Of a stretch of 9,192 nucleotides of DNA, positions 1-8,980 are shown in pieces. This DNA is from a virus. Its lineage: Duplodnaviria; Heunggongvirae; Uroviricota; Caudoviricetes. The notes below the pieces were generated by a model, which was not told the origin of the DNA, did no database searches, and saw nothing but the letters and a program-made list of their open reading frames with translations. A program made the position numbers and the translations under genes. The stretch's first letter is position 1. Each line of letters starts with the position of its first letter. The stretch lies in IMG/VR virus record IMGVR_UViG_2671180366_000013; one strand, 5' to 3'.

Positions 1-57
1 TAAGTTGGAGTCATTACCAATATTAAGCAGTGAAATTTAGTCTATAAGATAATTGGC

Positions 58-88: not shown

Positions 89-115
89 CTCAATTTTATT
101 GTTGGTTAAATCAGA

Positions 116-1522
116 TTAATCCAGCCATTCAGTATGGAACACACCTTCTTTATCAATACGCTTATAAGTATGCGCACCAAAATAGTCACGCTGTGCCTGG
201 ATCAGGTTCGCAGGCAGAACAGCAGCACGGTAGCTGTCGTAATAGGCAACCGCTGCGGAGAAGGTCGGAACCGGAATACCGTTCTGTACTGCATAAGCAA
301 CGACATCACGCAGCGCCTGCTGGTAGTCATCGGCAATTTGCTTGAAGTACGGAGCCAGCAGCAGGTTAGCGATCTGCGGATTTTCGGCATAAGCATCGGT
401 GATTTTCTGCAGGAACTGCGCACGGATGATGCAGCCAGCACGGAAAATCTTCGCGATTTCGCCGTAGTTCAGATCCCAGTTGTACTCTTCAGACGCAGCA
501 CGCAGCTGAGAGAAGCCCTGGGCGTAAGAAACGATTTTGCCCAGATACAGCGCACGACGAACTTTTTCGATGAACTCAGCCTTGTCGCCTGCTGGCTGTG
601 CTTGCGGACCAGAGAGAACTTTAGATGCGGCAACACGCTGATCTTTCAGAGAAGAGATATAACGTGCAAACACAGACTCGGTAATCAGCGACAGCGGTTC
701 GCCGAGATCCAGCGCGCTCTGGCTGGTCCATTTACCGGTACCTTTGTTAGCCGCTTCATCCAGGATCACATCAACCAGGTAGTTACCGTCTTCATCTTTT
801 TTGGTGAAGATATCTTTGGTGATGTCGATCAGGTAACTGCTCAGTTCACCGTTATTCCACTCGGTGAAGGTCTGTGCCAGTTCTTCGTTGGTGAGGTTCA
901 GGCCACCTTTAAGCAGAGAATAGGCTTCAGCAATCAGTTGCATATCACCGTATTCGATACCGTTGTGAACCATCTTCACATAATGGCCTGCGCCATCGGC
1001 ACCAATATAGGTAACGCATGGCTCCCCGTCTTCAGCTACTGCGGCGATTTTGGTCAGGATTGGTGCAACCAGTTCATAGGCTTCTTTCTGGCCACCAGGC
1101 ATAATGGAAGGACCTTTCAGCGCGCCTTCTTCACCACCGGAAACACCGGTACCGATGAAGTTAAAGCCTTCGGCAGAAAGCTCACGGTTACGGCGAATGG
1201 TGTCCTGGAAGAAGGTATTACCACCATCAATGATGATGTCACCTTTATCGAGGTATGGCTTGAGGGAATCAATAGCAGCATCCGTGCCTGCACCTGCTTT
1301 CACCATTAACAGGATGCGACGAGGCGTTTCCAGAGATTCAACGAACTCTTTCACCGTATAGTAAGGAACCAGTTTCTTGCCTGGATTTTCGGCAATCACT
1401 TCTTCCGTCTTTTCACGGGAACGGTTGAAAATAGAGACGGTATAACCACGGCTTTCGATGTTGAGCGCAAGGTTGCGCCCCATCACGGCCATACCGACGA
1501 CGCCGATCTGTTGCTTTGACAT
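116..1522 (-). CDS. gnd: 6-phosphogluconate dehydrogenase (decarboxylating), 468 aa
   Basis: Full-length ORF with ATG at 1522-1520 and TAA at 118-116. N-terminal Rossmann motif [11 protein letters not shown]. Over its whole length the translation reads like E. coli Gnd as I recall it. Strong SD AGGAG (plus 1529-1533) sits 6 nt upstream of the ATG. GC near 50% by eye. Confidence 0.97.
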
Positions 1523-1684
1523 TGTTTACTCCTGTCAGGGGTGGTCACCGCGAAGTGTGCGGCTTAAATGTGGTATAGATGTTAACTCACTCATAGAGAT
1601 ACTGAATAGCATTACCTTGGATATACCACACCGGATATCTCATCTTTTCCGTTTTTTAAAACCCATTTATATGAAATTACTGAA
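1523..1684 (-). promoter_or_regulatory. manB-gnd intergenic region containing the gnd 5' UTR, SD and presumably the gnd promoter
   Basis: 162-nt non-coding gap between the manB stop and the gnd start. The minus-strand sequence ends ...CCCTGACAGGAGTAAACA-ATG, which matches the conserved gnd leader as I recall it. I could not place convincing -35/-10 hexamers by eye; TTAACA (revcomp of plus 1584-1589) is a possible -35 but has no good -10 at 16-18 bp spacing. Confidence 0.4.
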
Positions 1685-3055
1685 TTACTTGTTCAGTAAC
1701 TCAAGGATAAGTTTTGTCTTTTCTTCCATCAGCGGTACATCGCCGCGCGATTCCACATTCAACCGCACCACCGGTTCGGTGTTGGAGGAGCGCAGGTTAA
1801 AGCGCCAGTCGGCAAAGGTCATGCTGATGCCATCGGTGCGATCCACCGCCAGCGCCTCGCGGCTAAAGTGCTGTTCCACGCGGTTAATCGCCTCAACGGG
1901 GTGTGCCAGTTTGCTGTTGATCTCACCGCTTGCCGGAAACGCTGCCATCCGGTCGCGCACCAGTTCGCCCAGCGTTTTTCCTTTCAGGCACACCAGTTCG
2001 GCGACCAGCAGCCACGGGATCATGCCGCTGTCGCAGTAAGCGAAATCACGGAAGTAATGGTGGGCGCTCATTTCGCCACCGTAGATAGCGTCTTCCTTGC
2101 GCATACGTTCTTTAATAAAGGCGTGTCCGGTTTTCGACATTACCGGGGTGCCGCCTGCGGCAGTCACCACATCAACGGTGTTCCAGGAGAGACGTGGATC
2201 GTGGATGATCTTCGCGCCGGGATTTTTTTCGAGGAACGCTTCTGCCAGCAGGCCGACAATGTAGTAGCCCTCAATAAACTGCCCTTTTTCGTCAAACAGG
2301 AAACAGCGGTCAAAATCGCCATCAAAGGCAATGCCCATATCCGCGCCGTGTTTGATGACCGCATTGCGGGTGTCGTCGCGACATTCCGGCAGTAGCGGGT
2401 TAGGAATACCGTTGGGGAAATTGCCGTCCGGCGTGTTGTGCACTTTGATTAATTCCACGGGTGCGCCGAGGGCTTTAAAGCGGGCTTCAATGGCGTCCAC
2501 CACCGGACCCGCCGCGCCGTTCCCGGAGTTAATCACCAGCTTGAGCGGCGTGAGGTTTTTGACGTTGATATAACCGAACAGGTGATCAACGTAAGCGTCA
2601 CGCAGATTGATTTGCTGATAGCGACCGCGTTTGGTTTCATCAACGGGAGGAAAGTCGTTGGCTTCTGCCAGACGCTGGATGTCGCGCAGTCCGGTATCAC
2701 CGCTGATCGGGCGAGCCCCTTCGCGCACCAGTTTCATGCCGTTGTAATCCATCGGGTTATGGCTGGCGGTAACTTCGATGCCGCCATCCACGCCGAGATG
2801 GAACGTGGCGAAATAGATCTCTTCGGTGCCGGACATGCCAATATCCAGCACATCGACGCCCGCATCCTGTAACCCCTTCGCCAGCGCCAGTTTTAAGGTT
2901 TCGCTGGTGAGTCGGACGTCACCGCCTAACACAATGGTTTTCGGTTTGAGAAATTCGCCATAAGCGCGACCAATGCGCCAGGCAATATCTTCATTCAGTT
3001 CTTCGCCTAATTTCCCGCGAATATCATAGGCTTTAAAGCAGGGTAAACTCGACAT
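1685..3055 (-). CDS. manB: Phosphomannomutase (Man-6-P to Man-1-P), 456 aa
   Basis: ATG at 3055-3053, TAA at 1687-1685. Active-site phosphoserine motif TASHNP, metal-binding DGDFDR, N-terminus [14 protein letters not shown] typical of ManB/CpsG. SD AAGGTAT about 6 nt upstream. GC-rich (about 55-60% by eye) apart from the last 15 or so codons. Confidence 0.95.
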
Positions 3056-3137
3056 GATATACCTTAAACAAATAATACTTATTACAGATTAACTAAAAAT
3101 ATTAGCGCTCTTCTACTAACGTTACATTATCAAAAAT

Positions 3138-4577
3138 TTAGCTACGACCATATCGGTCCTGAAAACGGATAACATCGTCTTCTTCTAAATAAGATCCAGA
3201 ACGAACTTCAATTAAATCAAGAGGAATTTTCCCTGGATTTTCCAAGCAGTGTATTACACCAAGAGGTATGTAAACAGATTCATTTTCGCTAAGAATCTTA
3301 GTTTCAGAACCTATAGTCACCCTTGCAGTTCCAGAAACTATGATCCAATGTTCTGCCCTATGATGGTGCATTTGTAAAGAAAGTCCTTCACCAGGATTTA
3401 CTGTTATACGTTTGACCTGATAACGCTCCCCTGTGTCAATGGAATCATATTTACCCCAAGGACGATATACTTCGCGATGAACATAATGCTCGCTACGACC
3501 TGAATTTTTAATTTGTTCTACTATTTTCTTTACATCCTGAACTTTATTTCTCTCTGAGACAAGAACAGCATCCTTTGTTTGGACAACAACTAAATTTTCC
3601 ACTCCAACTGTAGCAACAATTCCCGATTCGGCATATATGAAAGAATTCTTTGTTTCATGAGAGAAAATATCCCCAACTATTACGTTGCCGTCTGAGTCTT
3701 TATCATTAATTTCCCAAAGAGAAGACCATGAACCGACATCACTCCAGCCAGCATCCATTGGAATAACAATTGCGTCTTTTGTTTTTTCCATTACAGCGTA
3801 ATCAATTGACTCTTCAGGGCACTTAGAGAAAGAACTTTCATCTAAACGCACAAAATCAAGGTCAAAGTTCGCTGAAGCAATTGCTTTTTCACAAGCGGAT
3901 AAAATATCAGGCCGAAATTGTTTAAGTTCCTCTATATAACGATTTGCACTAAACAAAAACATACCGCTATTCCAATAATACTCACCGGAAGCAAGATATT
4001 TAGTGGCTGTCTCATGATTTGGCTTTTCAACAAATGATGACACTATAAATGCATCCGAATCTTCCTGATTAATATATTGTCCTCGATGTATATAACCATA
4101 ACCAGTTTCTGCTTTGTCTGGAATTATACCAAATGTTACCAATTTCCCATCAGCAGCGTATGGAATTGCCGATCTAACAGCGTTACAAAATTTTTCTTCA
4201 TCGTGTATAACGTGATCTGCAGCCAGTACGAGCATAAGATCATCTGCACTTTTATCAGACTTAGACATCAGCAACGCCGCTAATGCAATTGCAGGGGCAG
4301 TGTTACGCCCAACAGGCTCAAGGATGATATTCTTTGAAGTCAATCTATCGATTTTTCTAAGCTGTTCAGCAACTATAAAGCGGTATTGTTCATTACAAAT
4401 GACATAAGGGTTGGTACAATCCAAACCATCCAGACGATTAGCCGTTGTTTGAAGCATGGTATGACTACCGATTAGGCTAAGAAATTGTTTCGGATAGAGA
4501 ATTCTTGATAGTGGCCACAACCGACTGCCTGAACCACCAGCCATAATGATAGGTGTAATAATTTTATTATTGTTCAT
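3138..4577 (-). CDS. manC: Mannose-1-phosphate guanylyltransferase (GDP-mannose pyrophosphorylase), 479 aa; alternative start at 4589 gives 483 aa
   Basis: N-terminal nucleotidyltransferase motif [14 protein letters not shown] and C-terminal cupin-type domain (…[19 protein letters not shown]…), the architecture of type II ManC/CpsB. Two in-frame ATGs (4589 and 4577): the second has a weak GAGA SD upstream and gives an N-terminal length matching CpsB-type proteins; the first would overlap the upstream glycosyltransferase by 23 nt. TAA at 3140-3138. AT-rich. Confidence 0.92.
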
Positions 4578-5772
4578 ATAATTTCTCATCTAATGTATTC
4601 ATTAAATTGGCAACTTTTGATTCCCAAGAAAAATTATTTTCTACAAAACTACGGGCATTTTCAGCCACTTCAGTATAACGATTATAATCGTAAATTATTT
4701 CTCTTAGTACGTTTTTATATTGCTCTACTGTATCTGCAACAAAAATTTCGCTACCTGATTTTGCATTAATACCTTCATAACCAATGCTAGATGTAATACA
4801 TGGTAAACCTAAAGCCATGTATTCAAGAATTTTATTTTGTACGCCTGCTCCAAGACGAACAGGACATATACCTATATGCCCTGTAGAAGCGGAAGAATTG
4901 ATATCATCAACAGTACCTAAAGCAATTGTATTTTTAAATGAATTTAATATATTTTTATTAGTTTCTGAGATCTTACCAATCACTTTAAAAATAATATTAA
5001 ACTCATCATACAAGCAAGGTAAAATATTCTTAGCAAAATGTTTTGCAGCATCCATATTTTGTAAAGAATACATATTTCCGATAAATATAAGTTCCACAGG
5101 CTTATCGATTTTTATTTCTCTTTTTATATATCTCAAGGCTGATGTATCAACCCCATTATTGACTATATGGATATTACTGCCCGGATTAGGGTAGAGATAG
5201 TCACGGTCTACGGATGAAATAAAAGTGGTCAAATCAAAAAGATTCGCCACAGAACGTTCATATGATTCTAATCTTTTTTGTTCCAGAGAATAAATAATTG
5301 CACGCAAACTTTTTTTACTTGCTAATTTTTTAACGCGACTGTAATTCAAAGATATTGCATCTGTCATATCAAGAATTTTGAACTTGTCTGTATCCTTAAC
5401 ATAATCAGCAACTCTTATCAGATGACAAAATACTGCATCGCATTGTTTAATTAATTTATTGTATTTATTCTTAAATGTGTCCGATTGATAATAAGCAATT
5501 TGCAACGGTTTTTGCGTAACCAAAGCTTTTAATACATTATAATATGATTTATATTTTGGTAGATAGACACGATGAATTTCTTTGAAGACCGAGTCATTTA
5601 TATTTATTTCAAGTTCTAGTGGTTGATCACATAAGCTCAGAAGAATAAGATCATATTTTTTGGAAAGTTCTTTACATAACATATAGACTCTTAATCTATC
5701 CCCTCCAATGACAGGGTAGGGAAAGCGAGGTGTAAGAACCAGTATTTTTTTTCTCTGCTCTGATTGATTCAT
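4567..5772 (-). CDS. Glycosyltransferase, GT-B fold / GT4 family (donor unknown; possibly a mannosyltransferase given position next to manC), 401 aa
   Basis: N-terminal domain motif [17 protein letters not shown] and C-terminal donor-binding motif [19 protein letters not shown], both typical of Glycos_transf_1. The ORF track starts at a GTG (5829) that would overlap the epimerase gene by 37 nt; the first ATG (5772-5770) leaves a 20-nt gap after the epimerase stop and has AAGG upstream, so I call the start at 5772. TAA at 4569-4567. Confidence 0.85.
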
Positions 5773-5792
5773 AAAACTGAAACCTTTTATAT

Positions 5793-6800
5793 TCAGAATC
5801 CGTCTGGATAATTTTTTTTCCAACGCCACGAGTCCAATAACATCTGTTCTAGAGTTTGTTCGGCTTGCCAGTCCAATAAAGAATTAGCTTTATCTGCATC
5901 AGCCCAACAAGACGCAACATCCCCTGCCCTTCTCTCTATAAAAGATTTATTGACCTTAATGTTTGTTAATTTTTCAAATGTAGTGATTAATTCAAGCACC
6001 GAATAACCTTTTCCTGTACCAAGATTAAAGATATTATATCCCGAATTGATACTTAAATAATTCATTGCAGCCAAATGACCTTTCGCTAAGTCAACAACAT
6101 GAATAAAATCCCTTACACCTGTTCCATCATTAGTAGGGTAATCATTGCCATAAATAAATAATTTATCACGTTTACCACTCGCAACATCCAATAAATAAGG
6201 AACAAGATTATTAGGGATACCAGATGGAGCCTCACCTATTTTACCACTAGAATGAGCACCGACAGGATTAAAATATCTCAAGCAAATTATATCCAGTTTT
6301 CCCGTGGAACTAACATCCTCTAGAATTTTTTCAACAAAATACTTCGATGTGCCATATGGATTCGTAGTTCCTCCAATTTTAGCTGTTTCTGGAATTGGAA
6401 TTATCTCTGGTTCACCATAGACTGTCGCAGATGAACTAAAGATAAATTTTTTAATTCTGTACTCTTCCATTACCTGTAATAAAGTAATGGTCACTCCAAC
6501 ATTATTCTGGTAATACTTTAAGGGTTCACTTTTAGACTCTGAAACAGATTTAAAGCCAGCAAAATGAATAACTATATCTATGGCGTGTTTCTCGAAAATA
6601 GCGGAGAGTGTCTTCCTACACCCAGCATCTCCAGTAATTGTTATAAAATCACGTCGAGTAATTTCTTTTATTTTTTCGATACACTTGTATGAAGCATTAC
6701 TGAAATTGTCCAGAACGATAATCTCATGACCTGCATTCAGTAATTCAATAGCCGTATGAGATCCGATATATCCAGCACCACCAGTTACTAATATGTTCAT
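5793..6800 (-). CDS. gne: UDP-hexose 4-epimerase of the GalE family (NAD-dependent SDR), 335 aa; predicted to accept N-acetylated substrates (Gne-like)
   Basis: N-terminal NAD motif VTGGAGYIGSH, SSSATVYG substrate motif, catalytic YGTSK (Tyr-x3-Lys), colinear with E. coli GalE throughout. The position aligned to GalE Tyr299 is Cys298 here (codon at 5907-5909). ATG at 6800-6798 with GGAGAT SD about 7 nt upstream. The gne symbol rests on the Cys inference; GalE-family membership is secure. Confidence 0.9.
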   Translation of the reverse strand: MNILVTGGAGYIGSHTAIELLNAGHEIIVLDNFSNASYKCIEKIKEITRRDFITITGDAGCRKTLSAIFEKHAIDIVIHFAGFKSVSESKSEPLKYYQNNVGVTITLLQVMEEYRIKKFIFSSSATVYGEPEIIPIPETAKIGGTTNPYGTSKYFVEKILEDVSSTGKLDIICLRYFNPVGAHSSGKIGEAPSGIPNNLVPYLLDVASGKRDKLFIYGNDYPTNDGTGVRDFIHVVDLAKGHLAAMNYLSINSGYNIFNLGTGKGYSVLELITTFEKLTNIKVNKSFIERRAGDVASCWADADKANSLLDWQAEQTLEQMLLDSWRWKKNYPDGF

Positions 6801-6816
6801 ATTATATCTCCACTAA

Positions 6817-7962
6817 CTAATCGTCAAAATTTATTATATCAAGTTCATGGCCATTAAACCGATAATGTGAATAATATTTTTGCTGATAAGACATTATTAG
6901 CTGTTTATTGATACTTTTCATCTTGAAATCTTTAGGAAATTCCTCATCCAAATGTGAGATTTTTTTAACACACTCCTTATTGTGTATAATTTCATCATAG
7001 CCGATTAAGGAATGCTCTGTCGCATAAATATATAATCCATATGATAGTGCTTCTGCAATTTTTGTTTTCATTCCACTTCCTAAAACTATAGGAGAATAAA
7101 AAACATCACAAGCAGATAATAAATATGACATTTCACTATTAGATAGATTATCGAAAAAAAATAAATTATCCAAATCAGGAAGATTCAAAGTAGTACTTTT
7201 CCTACCTGCCAAAATATAGCAATAATCATTATTAGACTTTGCTGCATTTAAAACATAGTTGGCAGCATCTATATTTGGAAAAAAATCAAAAGATGCAGTA
7301 AATACTACTTTTTTCCTATTATCATTATTCAATCGATTATACTCATTAATAAAGTGAGCTGACAATACATCAGTTGGTTTTTCTCTACTAAATATCACAG
7401 GGAGAATTAAATTTCTGCTTTTTTTAATCCCATAAAATTTATCCATTGCATTTTTATCTTGCCGGGTAATATAGCTAACTAAATCTGAATTCTTAAGCCC
7501 GATAAATTCATTGAGATAAACAATTAATTTTTCAATAAAAGTAGTTATGTTTTTATCTTTTTGTCTTATTAAGTCATATTCGAAGTTATCCGTAAACAAT
7601 ATGATCTTTTTGTGGGGCATGAGTATTCTAAAAAGCAGACATAACAATCCAAGCCGAGAGTTGTGAAAAGCAAGAATATCTTGCTTCCGTAAAATTTTAA
7701 TTATTGAGAAAATATAAGGGACATAAAATGATGGTATAAAAAAAAGCCTGGATATTATATCCTGACGTTTACCTTTAATAAATGATATATGTTGAAAAGT
7801 ATTGTCTTCGAATAGTTTACCTGAGGATTTTTTATCAATAAGTGTTAAATTAACATTCTGTTTTTGTAGAAAACTAACAAGCGTACGTAAATATACTCCT
7901 CCTCCGGTAAGTTCATTATATGAGTTAATTGAAATGAGACAGAGTTTCTTATTTTTTTTCAT
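6817..7962 (-). CDS. Glycosyltransferase, GT-B fold / GT4-like, 381 aa
   Basis: ATG at 7962-7960, TAG at 6819-6817. N-terminal LTGGGVYLRTL and C-terminal GSGMKTKIAEALSYGLYIY match the Glycos_transf_1 donor-binding region. Very AT-rich. Overlaps the upstream gene by 14 nt. Confidence 0.8.
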   Translation of the reverse strand: MKKNKKLCLISINSYNELTGGGVYLRTLVSFLQKQNVNLTLIDKKSSGKLFEDNTFQHISFIKGKRQDIISRLFFIPSFYVPYIFSIIKILRKQDILAFHNSRLGLLCLLFRILMPHKKIILFTDNFEYDLIRQKDKNITTFIEKLIVYLNEFIGLKNSDLVSYITRQDKNAMDKFYGIKKSRNLILPVIFSREKPTDVLSAHFINEYNRLNNDNRKKVVFTASFDFFPNIDAANYVLNAAKSNNDYCYILAGRKSTTLNLPDLDNLFFFDNLSNSEMSYLLSACDVFYSPIVLGSGMKTKIAEALSYGLYIYATEHSLIGYDEIIHNKECVKKISHLDEEFPKDFKMKSINKQLIMSYQQKYYSHYRFNGHELDIINFDD

Positions 7963-8980
7963 TAAATGCCGCCGTTAAAATTTCCGCATATCTCTCTTCA
8001 GAAAAAAGCTCACGCTTGCTATAAATAGTTTGTCTCAAATGATAATATTTTTCATTATCAAGACTAATTAATTTGTAGGCTACTTGTGCTAAATCTTCTT
8101 TATTATTGGCAATAAATACGCCAGGAAAACTTTCTGCATACAACTCTCTAATTGCACCAACATTATAGCCTATCACAGGGCAACCACAGCATAGCGCTTC
8201 AATAGTAACCAGCTCATATCCTTCATAATAGGACGGTAAAATAAGTACTCTGGATTTCTTAAATATTTCTGGCATTTTCGCATAGGGGACAGCAATGCTG
8301 GTCAGAACATTATTTAGCGAAGCAAAATTTTGTGGGGCGGGAATACTTGAAACTAAATGGAAGGAAGTATCTGGCAGATTTTTACATATGTAATACAGAT
8401 CATCTATTCCTTTTCCTTTTTCCAATCGCCCGACAAATGTCACATATTCTGCTTCATTAACATCAGTGTAATCAAATTGTGCAAGATTTATAAAATTTCG
8501 AACAACTTTGATTTTATGTGAATTAATATTGTAAAGCTCATTCCATTCACTTTTAACCTTATTTGAAACAGCCCAGATATTTTTTGAAAATGCTCCAGCC
8601 CAACGCTCATAGAAAGATAAAAGACCACTGCCAGACAACCGATTAGGTTTTTTATTCATGACTGTTTGAAAATAACATTTCATATTGCCATGAGCTATTA
8701 AGATGTCATTCCTATAAAAAGGAGAACAATAGCCATGTGCAATAACTTTAAACGTCACGCCACGTAATTTTTGTAAGGTTAAATAAAGAGAAACTAATAT
8801 TGGATAAAGTGCTACTTGTATTTTTTTGTTACGAATTTTGTTAGAAATTTTGAAGTATGTTTTATCAAGTATAATGACTTTAACCCCCAAATTTTTAAGA
8901 ATGTTACATTGTTGGGCAACAACCCTTTCCACCCCACCTTGCCCTCCTGAACCATTATACGCGGCGATATATATAATCAT
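7949..8980 (-). CDS. Glycosyltransferase, GT4 family (retaining), 343 aa
   Basis: N-terminal GSGGQGGVERVV and canonical E-x7-E motif EGYELVTIEALCCGCPVIG. The ORF track start (9031) is a GTG; the first ATG at 8980-8978 gives a typical GT4 N-terminus (MIIYIAAYNGSGG), has GGGAAG about 10 nt upstream, and forms an ATGA overlap with the stop of the upstream ORF. TAA at 7951-7949. Confidence 0.85.
   Translation of the reverse strand: MIIYIAAYNGSGGQGGVERVVAQQCNILKNLGVKVIILDKTYFKISNKIRNKKIQVALYPILVSLYLTLQKLRGVTFKVIAHGYCSPFYRNDILIAHGNMKCYFQTVMNKKPNRLSGSGLLSFYERWAGAFSKNIWAVSNKVKSEWNELYNINSHKIKVVRNFINLAQFDYTDVNEAEYVTFVGRLEKGKGIDDLYYICKNLPDTSFHLVSSIPAPQNFASLNNVLTSIAVPYAKMPEIFKKSRVLILPSYYEGYELVTIEALCCGCPVIGYNVGAIRELYAESFPGVFIANNKEDLAQVAYKLISLDNEKYYHLRQTIYSKRELFSEERYAEILTAAFNEKK

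Follow-up and report, generated by a model that had tools for sequence, protein, structure and literature searches.

Colanic-acid-like manB in the O-antigen cluster of Escherichia coli O6: a GC-rich gene body probably derived from cpsG

The manB gene of the Escherichia coli O6 O-antigen cluster carries a GC-rich body of the colanic acid cpsG type, framed by a first 13 nt and a last 38 nt that diverge sharply from cpsG, in a cluster whose other genes are AT-rich. We propose, with a probability that we put at roughly 90%, that this gene is a 'colanic-acid-like' (CA-like) O-antigen manB, the body of which was replaced by cpsG and in which exchange is still continuing. An origin of the body in cpsG would account for the GC-rich composition of manB.

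The window, which is the whole stretch of 9,192 nt analysed here, matches the chromosome of E. coli strain YJ6 at 100% identity, many O6:H16 ETEC genomes are identical to it from position 19 onward, and at least 80% of it is present in 153 complete genomes, that is, in about 153 O6 genomes. It is the half of the E. coli O6 O-antigen cluster that lies nearest to gnd. In the surrounding 49 kb of YJ6 the RefSeq gene order is: wca genes including cpsB and cpsG, galF, wzx(O6), wzy(O6), glycosyltransferases, galE, a glycosyltransferase, manC, manB, gnd and ugd. manB sits inside the O-antigen cluster (galF to gnd), and the colanic acid cluster keeps its own cpsG, which together with cpsB is found 19.3 kb upstream among the wca genes. 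All genes of the window are on the minus strand, and four more cluster genes lie upstream of manC. The features that matter for the argument are:

116-1522, minus strand: gnd, a housekeeping gene that flanks the O-antigen locus (NCBIfam PRK09287, 774.8 bits).
1523-1684, minus strand: manB-gnd intergenic region of 162 nt, part of a junction module common to several serogroups (found together with the manB tail in 444 genomes).
1685-3055, minus strand: manB (rfbK), encoding the O6 cluster's phosphomannomutase, predicted from its open reading frame and a full-length NCBIfam PRK15414 match; 456 amino acids, intact.
1685-1722, minus strand: AT-rich 3' stub of manB, its last 12 codons and stop, not cps-like (17 of 35 sites differ from cpsG).
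1723-3042, minus strand: colanic-acid-like, GC-rich core of manB, gene nt 14-1333 (96.6% identical to the cpsG of the same genome, no gaps).
1838-1904, minus strand: short patch of recombination by which the YJ6-type (ETEC) O6 manB differs from the Nissle-type (5 of the 11 YJ6/Nissle differences in 67 nt).
3043-3055, minus strand: O6-specific 5' head of manB, ATGTCGAGTTTAC, encoding MSSLP in place of MKKLT (6 of 10 sites differ from cpsG).
3056-3137, minus strand: AT-rich manC-manB spacer of 82 nt, holding the putative ribosome-binding site of manB (GC 0.232).
3138-4589, minus strand: manC (predicted GDP-mannose pyrophosphorylase; PRK15460, TIGR01479), AT-rich and not cps-like, the contrast partner of manB.

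The manB protein matches the NCBIfam model PRK15414 'phosphomannomutase CpsG' from end to end (1-456 of 456) with 1046.9 bits against a cutoff of 801, and its catalytic phosphoserine loop (SHNP, residue 98) and metal-binding loop (DGDFDR, residue 245) are both intact. Because these features are joined by differences from cpsG that are mostly synonymous, manB is predicted to be a functional phosphomannomutase with a body of colanic acid type. Phosphomannomutase converts Man-6-P to Man-1-P and so supplies GDP-mannose; the manB product presumably does so for the mannose-containing O6 repeat unit, from a gene that we take to be transcribed within the O-antigen operon. The manC product scores 861 bits against PRK15460 and 788 bits against TIGR01479. 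RefSeq names the O-antigen manB of YJ6 'cpsG', adjoining the O6 wzx/wzy genes.

The compositional break is large. manB has a GC content of 0.551 and a GC3 of 0.648, manC 0.381 and 0.264, the four further upstream genes 0.28-0.36 and 0.22-0.26, and gnd 0.506 and 0.531, while in the same genome the colanic acid genes cpsG (0.553 and 0.641) and cpsB (0.557 and 0.622) have values close to those of manB. These values bear out the reading of the first-pass annotation, made from the sequence alone, that manC and everything upstream are AT-rich and that manB is GC-rich, above even gnd. The third codon position is G or C in 296 of 457 codons of manB versus 128 of 484 in manC (Fisher p = 8e-33), so that GC3 is far from uniform across the pair (0.65 versus 0.26), and GC computed over a sliding 200 nt falls from 0.52-0.61 to 0.34-0.41 over positions 2900-3100 and likewise to 0.40-0.42 over 1500-1800. 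At manB's 3' terminus, the 38-nt tail has 28.9% GC, like the rest of the O6 cluster (28-38%). The earlier description of an AT-rich end of manB at about 33% GC over 1685-1730 was right in composition (32.6%) and somewhat generous in length, as the divergent segment comprises 12 codons and the stop at 1685-1722 and not some 15 codons. The first 40 or so codons of manB also have a lower GC3 (0.40-0.47), a feature that we rejected as a recombination signal since cpsG shows an equal dip.

Between manC and manB lies the AT-rich 82-nt spacer, for which the coordinates first given proved exact. It has no similarity to the cpsB-cpsG spacer. A promoter and terminator scan of positions 1400-3300 returned nothing above shuffled expectation; within the spacer, the coding (minus) strand has no terminator-like site, and the single promoter-like match is on the opposite strand and falls below shuffled expectation. 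Beyond being AT-rich the spacer shows nothing remarkable.

Comparison of manB with the resident cpsG locates the source of the GC-rich tract. The cpsG of YJ6 (L001:40974-42344) is 1,371 nt long, equal in length to manB, and lies 19,289 bp from it in direct orientation. The two genes align without gaps and differ at 68 positions: 6 in gene nt 4-13, 45 in nt 14-1333 and 17 in nt 1334-1366. This corresponds to 95.0% identity over the whole gene and 96.6% over the 1,320-nt core (window 3042-1723), and the longest identical run is 122 nt, ample for a RecA-dependent crossover. The head and the tail stand apart from the core, with 6 of 10 sites differing at the 5' end (Fisher p = 4e-7) and 17 of 35 at the 3' end, when the core has 45 of 1320 (Fisher p = 4e-15). 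The 3' junction is placed at 1723|1722, after gene nt 1333, by a maximum chi-square scan in which none of 200 permutations reached the observed value; the 5' junction falls between window positions 3043, where the O6-specific sites end, and 3015, which adjoins the next informative site at 3014. Since the sharp divergence is confined to 13 nt at the start and 38 nt at the end of manB, both junctions lie inside the window, as the first-pass annotation had suspected when it proposed a recombinant, cps-like manB allele. A segment matching cpsG is indeed present, and the idea of a chimera with cpsG holds, except that the cps-like portion is more than a segment and amounts to essentially the entire gene body. 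By comparison, manC is only 63.4% identical to the cpsB of the same genome at the nucleotide level and 70.2% at the amino acid level, and is not CA-like. Codon differences in the core number 41 synonymous and 3 nonsynonymous; the manB core is under purifying selection.

These junctions bear directly on whether the jump in composition could have arisen from selection on the codon usage or expression of manB, with no recombination. Codon bias can in principle produce differences in GC3, although nothing specific speaks for it at this locus, and manC, co-transcribed and only 82 nt upstream, has a GC3 of 0.26. Moreover, the GC-rich part and the stretch with 96.6% identity to cpsG have exactly the same extent, ending at sharp junctions inside the open reading frame, which leaves codon selection with next to no probability as the explanation.

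The core of O6 manB is 95.4-97.8% identical to the cpsG of about 4,500 E. coli genomes. As the cpsG alleles of YJ6 and Nissle 1917 are themselves only 96.3% identical, O6 manB is as near to either of them as they are to each other and falls inside the diversity of E. coli cpsG. Among these genomes the search turned up no near-identical cpsG donor (>98%) for the entire core; the best match to a non-O6 cpsG reached about 97.8%, which implies either a mosaic allele or a founding event that was not recent. The sole homologue from another genus that was compared, in Citrobacter braakii, has the same type of tail and is about 80% identical to the O6 core, at a locus that looks like a cpsG/manB fusion; a distance of this size would agree with species specificity of the CA-like sequence. 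The sequence comparison, in which C. braakii alone stood for the other genera, thus supports E. coli cpsG as the probable donor type.

The first-pass annotation had allowed for a Klebsiella-like allele as well, and an import of manB from another GC-rich genus has precedents of a kind: Sugiyama and colleagues reportedly described in 1998 GC-rich, Klebsiella-like manC and manB genes in the mannan clusters of E. coli O8, O9 and O9a and explained them by recombination. GC-richness alone cannot separate such sources, and 38 E. coli records hold manB/cpsG homologues at 80-90% identity, so that foreign-type alleles may exist in the species. However, the O6 core shares its polymorphisms with E. coli cpsG and lies within the range of that gene, whereas the C. 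braakii homologue is only about 80% identical to that core, and the AT-rich manC of O6 is unlike that of the Klebsiella-type O8/O9 clusters, where manC and manB are both of this kind and the whole cluster is foreign; in O6 only the body of manB is GC-rich and it is of the E. coli cpsG type. The Klebsiella-like donor was accordingly dropped, and we consider a foreign import very improbable.

To place O6 among other serogroups, manB and cpsG were taken from seven genomes (O6 YJ6, O6 Nissle, O7, O43, two fucose-type clusters and O157), and the manB of O75 was added separately. Every O-antigen manB collected has a GC-rich, cps-like core. Across the core the 7 manB and 7 cpsG alleles show 0 fixed differences and 71 shared polymorphisms, and all 9 fixed differences between the two genes lie in the last 38 nt. 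Core alleles differ at 41-61 positions between manB genes (with the O6 pair, which differs at 6 sites, set aside), at 32-56 between cpsG genes and at 32-66 between manB and cpsG. In the seven genomes manB differs from its own cpsG by a mean of 47.7 mismatches and from the cpsG of other strains by 49.6, with no clear excess likeness to the resident copy, and the near equality of the two distances indicates that intragenomic conversion is not common enough to outweigh the exchange of the whole region between strains. In this small sample, with own and other distances about equal, manB and cpsG evolve in concert through gene conversion; intragenomic conversion is one contributor, beside inter-strain recombination in a hypervariable region. 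The absence of fixed differences could alternatively result from repeated independent replacements.

The ends of the gene vary by lineage. O6, O7, O43 and the two fucose-type clusters have their 3' tail and manB-gnd spacer in common, and tail plus spacer occur at a coverage of at least 80% in 444 genomes, about 290 of them non-O6. The gnd-proximal 65 nt or so of the spacer is conserved in C. braakii, where a related tail is also found. O157 manB has a cps-like core with an AT-rich tail of its own (EKKTKALLKLLSE) and the head MKSLT, and O75 manB joins its cps-like core to a third type of tail, with its own AT-rich stubs, junctions at other positions and the head MSSLT. In O43 the head is MKKLT, as in cpsG, and MSSLP is specific to O6 among the serogroups compared. 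The manC-manB spacers of O6 and O75 are both 82 nt long and poorly alignable. As stubs and junctions differ between lineages, replacement by cpsG seems to have occurred several times independently, and on these alignments the 3' junction of O6 is inherited or shared with other serogroups, and the 5' junction is specific to the cluster.

Exchange on a recent time scale can be seen by comparing the O6 clusters of YJ6, a phylogroup A-type ETEC strain, and Nissle 1917, a B2 strain, which differ at 11 sites over 1523-9192. Six of these sites are in manB, and 5 fall within 67 nt, at 1838-1904 (simulated P = 5e-6). At these sites Nissle has the state common to all other alleles, and the YJ6-type patch recurs in the colanic acid cpsG of strain MP1 with 1 mismatch in 111 nt. 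At gene positions 237 and 1218 the Nissle-specific states of manB (237A and 1218T) are those of Nissle's own cpsG, and YJ6 manB has the state of YJ6 cpsG; the evidence for micro-conversion from the strain's own cpsG consists of these two sites in one lineage. The differences between the O6 manB genes are short conversion tracts, each under about 60 nt, and such short patches point to recent conversion. The manB-gnd spacer (1523-1684) is identical in the two strains, whereas their gnd genes differ at about 45 sites although the O6 cluster is nearly identical, which places a lineage boundary between window positions 1499 and 1838.

Taken with the data from other serogroups, these patches weigh on a simpler history in which cpsG replaced or duplicated into manB once, in the ancestor of all gnd-adjacent manB genes, and the copies then diverged slowly and independently under purifying selection, with no continuing conversion. 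Such a history would fit the 3' stub and spacer that O6 shares with O7, O43 and two other clusters, the similar distances to own and other cpsG, and the lack of a recent donor for the whole core. It is harder to reconcile with 71 shared polymorphisms and no fixed difference in the core, with manB alleles that are as distant from one another as from cpsG, and with the differing stubs and junctions of O157 and O75, which imply several independent events; nor does it predict clustered patches between near-identical O6 clusters or two Nissle sites that equal the strain's own cpsG. A single old event is therefore unlikely, although it is less remote than either a foreign import or codon selection.

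We return to replacement by cpsG with continuing exchange, for which we suggest the following mechanism. The original O6 manB would have been AT-rich, like manC and the glycosyltransferase genes, and its body would have been replaced from cpsG by homologous recombination or gene conversion that spared only the outermost 13 nt on the 5' side and 38 nt on the 3' side. Conversion needs homology on both sides, so a tract cannot pass the last conserved blocks (CFKAYDIRG at the start and a second block near the end of the gene) into unrelated flanks. The flanks of the two genes are unrelated in this sense, with the manC spacer facing the cpsB spacer on one side and gnd facing wcaJ on the other, and the ends of the gene would so keep their AT-rich sequence. 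Afterwards short tracts would pass between the manB core and the pool of cpsG alleles in E. coli, within the genome and between strains, and through this continuing exchange the paralogues would evolve in concert and share polymorphisms. We infer the direction, from cpsG to manB, from the composition of manB, which matches cpsG and the neighbouring colanic acid genes cpsB, gmd and fcl, and not the operon to which manB belongs. As to the ends, a blastn search of 5,426 E. coli genomes found no AT-rich 'ancestral' manB with an O6-type tail, tail and spacer occurring only on cps-like cores, and a degenerate search for the codon pattern of the tail in 185,579 species genomes gave a single match, in C. 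braakii, to a gene that is likewise GC-rich. Because no fully AT-rich manB with O6-type stubs turned up, that the stubs are remnants of the original gene, protected by the anchoring of conversion tracts, is a point that we infer rather than observe.

The 3' stub may have had a separate path. It may have reached O6, together with the manB-gnd spacer, via a crossover in the conserved core while O-antigen clusters were being assembled or exchanged, in which case manB would be a three-part mosaic. One could go further and regard the tail and the 162-nt spacer as a conserved junction module, never homogenised with cpsG, that serves as a fixed right-hand crossover point, the cps-like core then acting as a universal 1.3-kb homology cassette for swapping and assembling clusters and for the 19-kb deletion; or the module might be kept for expression signals of gnd. 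This extension is speculative and we think it rather doubtful.

The class to which we assign O6 manB was reportedly defined in Salmonella. Stevenson and colleagues are said to have been the first, in 1991, to note the similarity of rfbK and cpsG in LT2, and Jensen and Reeves reportedly described in 2001 (in Microbiology 147:599) CA-like manB genes in 12 of 21 Salmonella O groups, with 93-99% identity to the colanic manB, concerted evolution, (sub)species specificity and a manC that is not CA-like. Like these genes, O6 manB is close to the resident colanic manB while its manC is not, and it is a GC-rich gene in an AT-rich cluster. The O6 case differs in species and O antigen, and in that manB adjoins gnd and has a 3' stub and spacer common to several E. 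coli serogroups. The O6 locus shows every testable defining feature of the CA-like manB class.

Comparable cases are known within E. coli, where the O157 manB, which like that of O6 has a cps-like core, is >95% identical to cpsG, and variation of manB between strains has been attributed to gene conversion, with neutral or purifying evolution (Iguchi et al., 2011; PMC3158064). The part of the earlier work that is relayed there states that the original manB of O157 was replaced by the colanic acid gene (Samuel et al., 2004, via Iguchi et al., 2011). In contrast to O6, the O157 gene has its own tail and head, and next after it come an IS remnant and perB instead of gnd. In E. coli B, manB and cpsG are described as highly similar, recombining paralogues (PMC13626634, citing Jensen and Reeves, 2001 and 2004), and deletions of 23,293 bp between cpsG and manB recur there, in nine lineages according to Table 2 and in 8 of 12 populations according to the text of that paper (PMC13626634). 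As in O6, the manB/cpsG pair of that system is in direct orientation, with the distal colanic acid genes as well as the O-antigen cluster lying between its two copies, and the O7 manB carries the O6-type 3' tail. The work on the E. coli B type, however, concerns the deletion product, a chimeric cpsG-manB, whereas the window holds the intact, undeleted arrangement. By analogy, the O6 cpsG-manB pair, 19,289 bp apart, should allow a like deletion. A search of the accessible literature found no publication that comments on O6 manB specifically; as CA-like manB is already known in kind from Salmonella, E. coli O157 and E. coli B and is ordinary in enterobacterial O-antigen loci, O6 is at most one more example, from a cluster that was sequenced long ago.

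The jump in GC content at manB can thus be read as the footprint of homogenisation between the paralogues of the O-antigen and colanic acid GDP-mannose pathways, and nothing new is needed to explain it. It does have practical consequences, in that annotation pipelines label the O-antigen manB of O6 'colanic acid cpsG', horizontal-transfer scans based on GC content will mark manB as a native-looking gene in a foreign cluster, and manB is a poor marker of serogroup phylogeny. For the organism itself, cpsG and manB form direct repeats through which the O-antigen cluster and the distal colanic acid genes can be lost in one deletion, as in E. coli B and O14:K7.

The transferred O6 block has its right-hand boundary between window positions 1499 and 1838, and so at the 5' end of gnd, in the manB-gnd spacer or in the tail of manB, because in a comparison of strain YJ6 with Nissle 1917 (both O6) gnd has diverged, with about 45 differing sites over window 99-1499, while the spacer is identical and the upstream O6 cluster nearly so. 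Outside the window, the annotation marks the O6 wzy of Nissle 1917 (L006, the locus of this strain, 10575-11918) as a pseudogene carrying an internal stop, which agrees with the semi-rough O6 LPS for which this strain is known.

On the far side of gnd, the ugd-gnd interval of YJ6 is the site of an IS1 insertion, the right end of which opens the window:

Window 1-18: right end of IS1, sequence TAAGTTGGAGTCATTACC

The IS1 transposase coding sequence ends ahead of this segment, at position 20003 of the YJ6 locus (L001), and the matches of other O6:H16 genomes begin only at window position 19.

The RefSeq/PGAP labels for the O-antigen genes manB (window 1685-3055; 'cpsG, colanic acid biosynthesis phosphomannomutase') and manC (3138-4589; 'cpsB') are misleading as names for genes of the O6 cluster; the equivalog score of manC, 861 against a cutoff of 859, barely passes. 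ORF starts also differ between the longest-ORF call and RefSeq (5829 versus 5772 and 9031 versus 8980). Consecutive ORFs overlap briefly at two places:

Window 4567-4589, minus strand at manC: overlap of manC with the upstream GT4 gene
Window 7949-7962: overlap of a GT gene with the next GT4 gene

These short overlaps suggest that genes of the O6 operon are translationally coupled.

The O75 cluster of E. coli KE41 offers a comparison:

L013 (KE41 locus) 4689-9220: O75 cluster

Its manC-manB spacer equals that of O6 in length (82 nt), but the two align poorly, and in O75 wzx sits between manB and gnd. The O75 manC is of intermediate GC (0.473), and the O75 manB has an AT-rich head and tail of its own.

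A different arrangement is found in Citrobacter braakii ATCC 51113 (NZ_NAEW01000002.1):

L014 (C. braakii locus) 2026-7765: wcaI, cpsB and a cpsG-like gene, followed directly by gnd and ugd

Every gene of this set is GC-rich, and the cpsG-like gene ends in a tail of the O-antigen manB type. It looks as though a crossover between cpsG and manB has removed the O-antigen cluster from this locus together with the distal colanic acid genes, in the manner of the cpsG/manB deletions reported in E. coli O14:K7 and in the LTEE.
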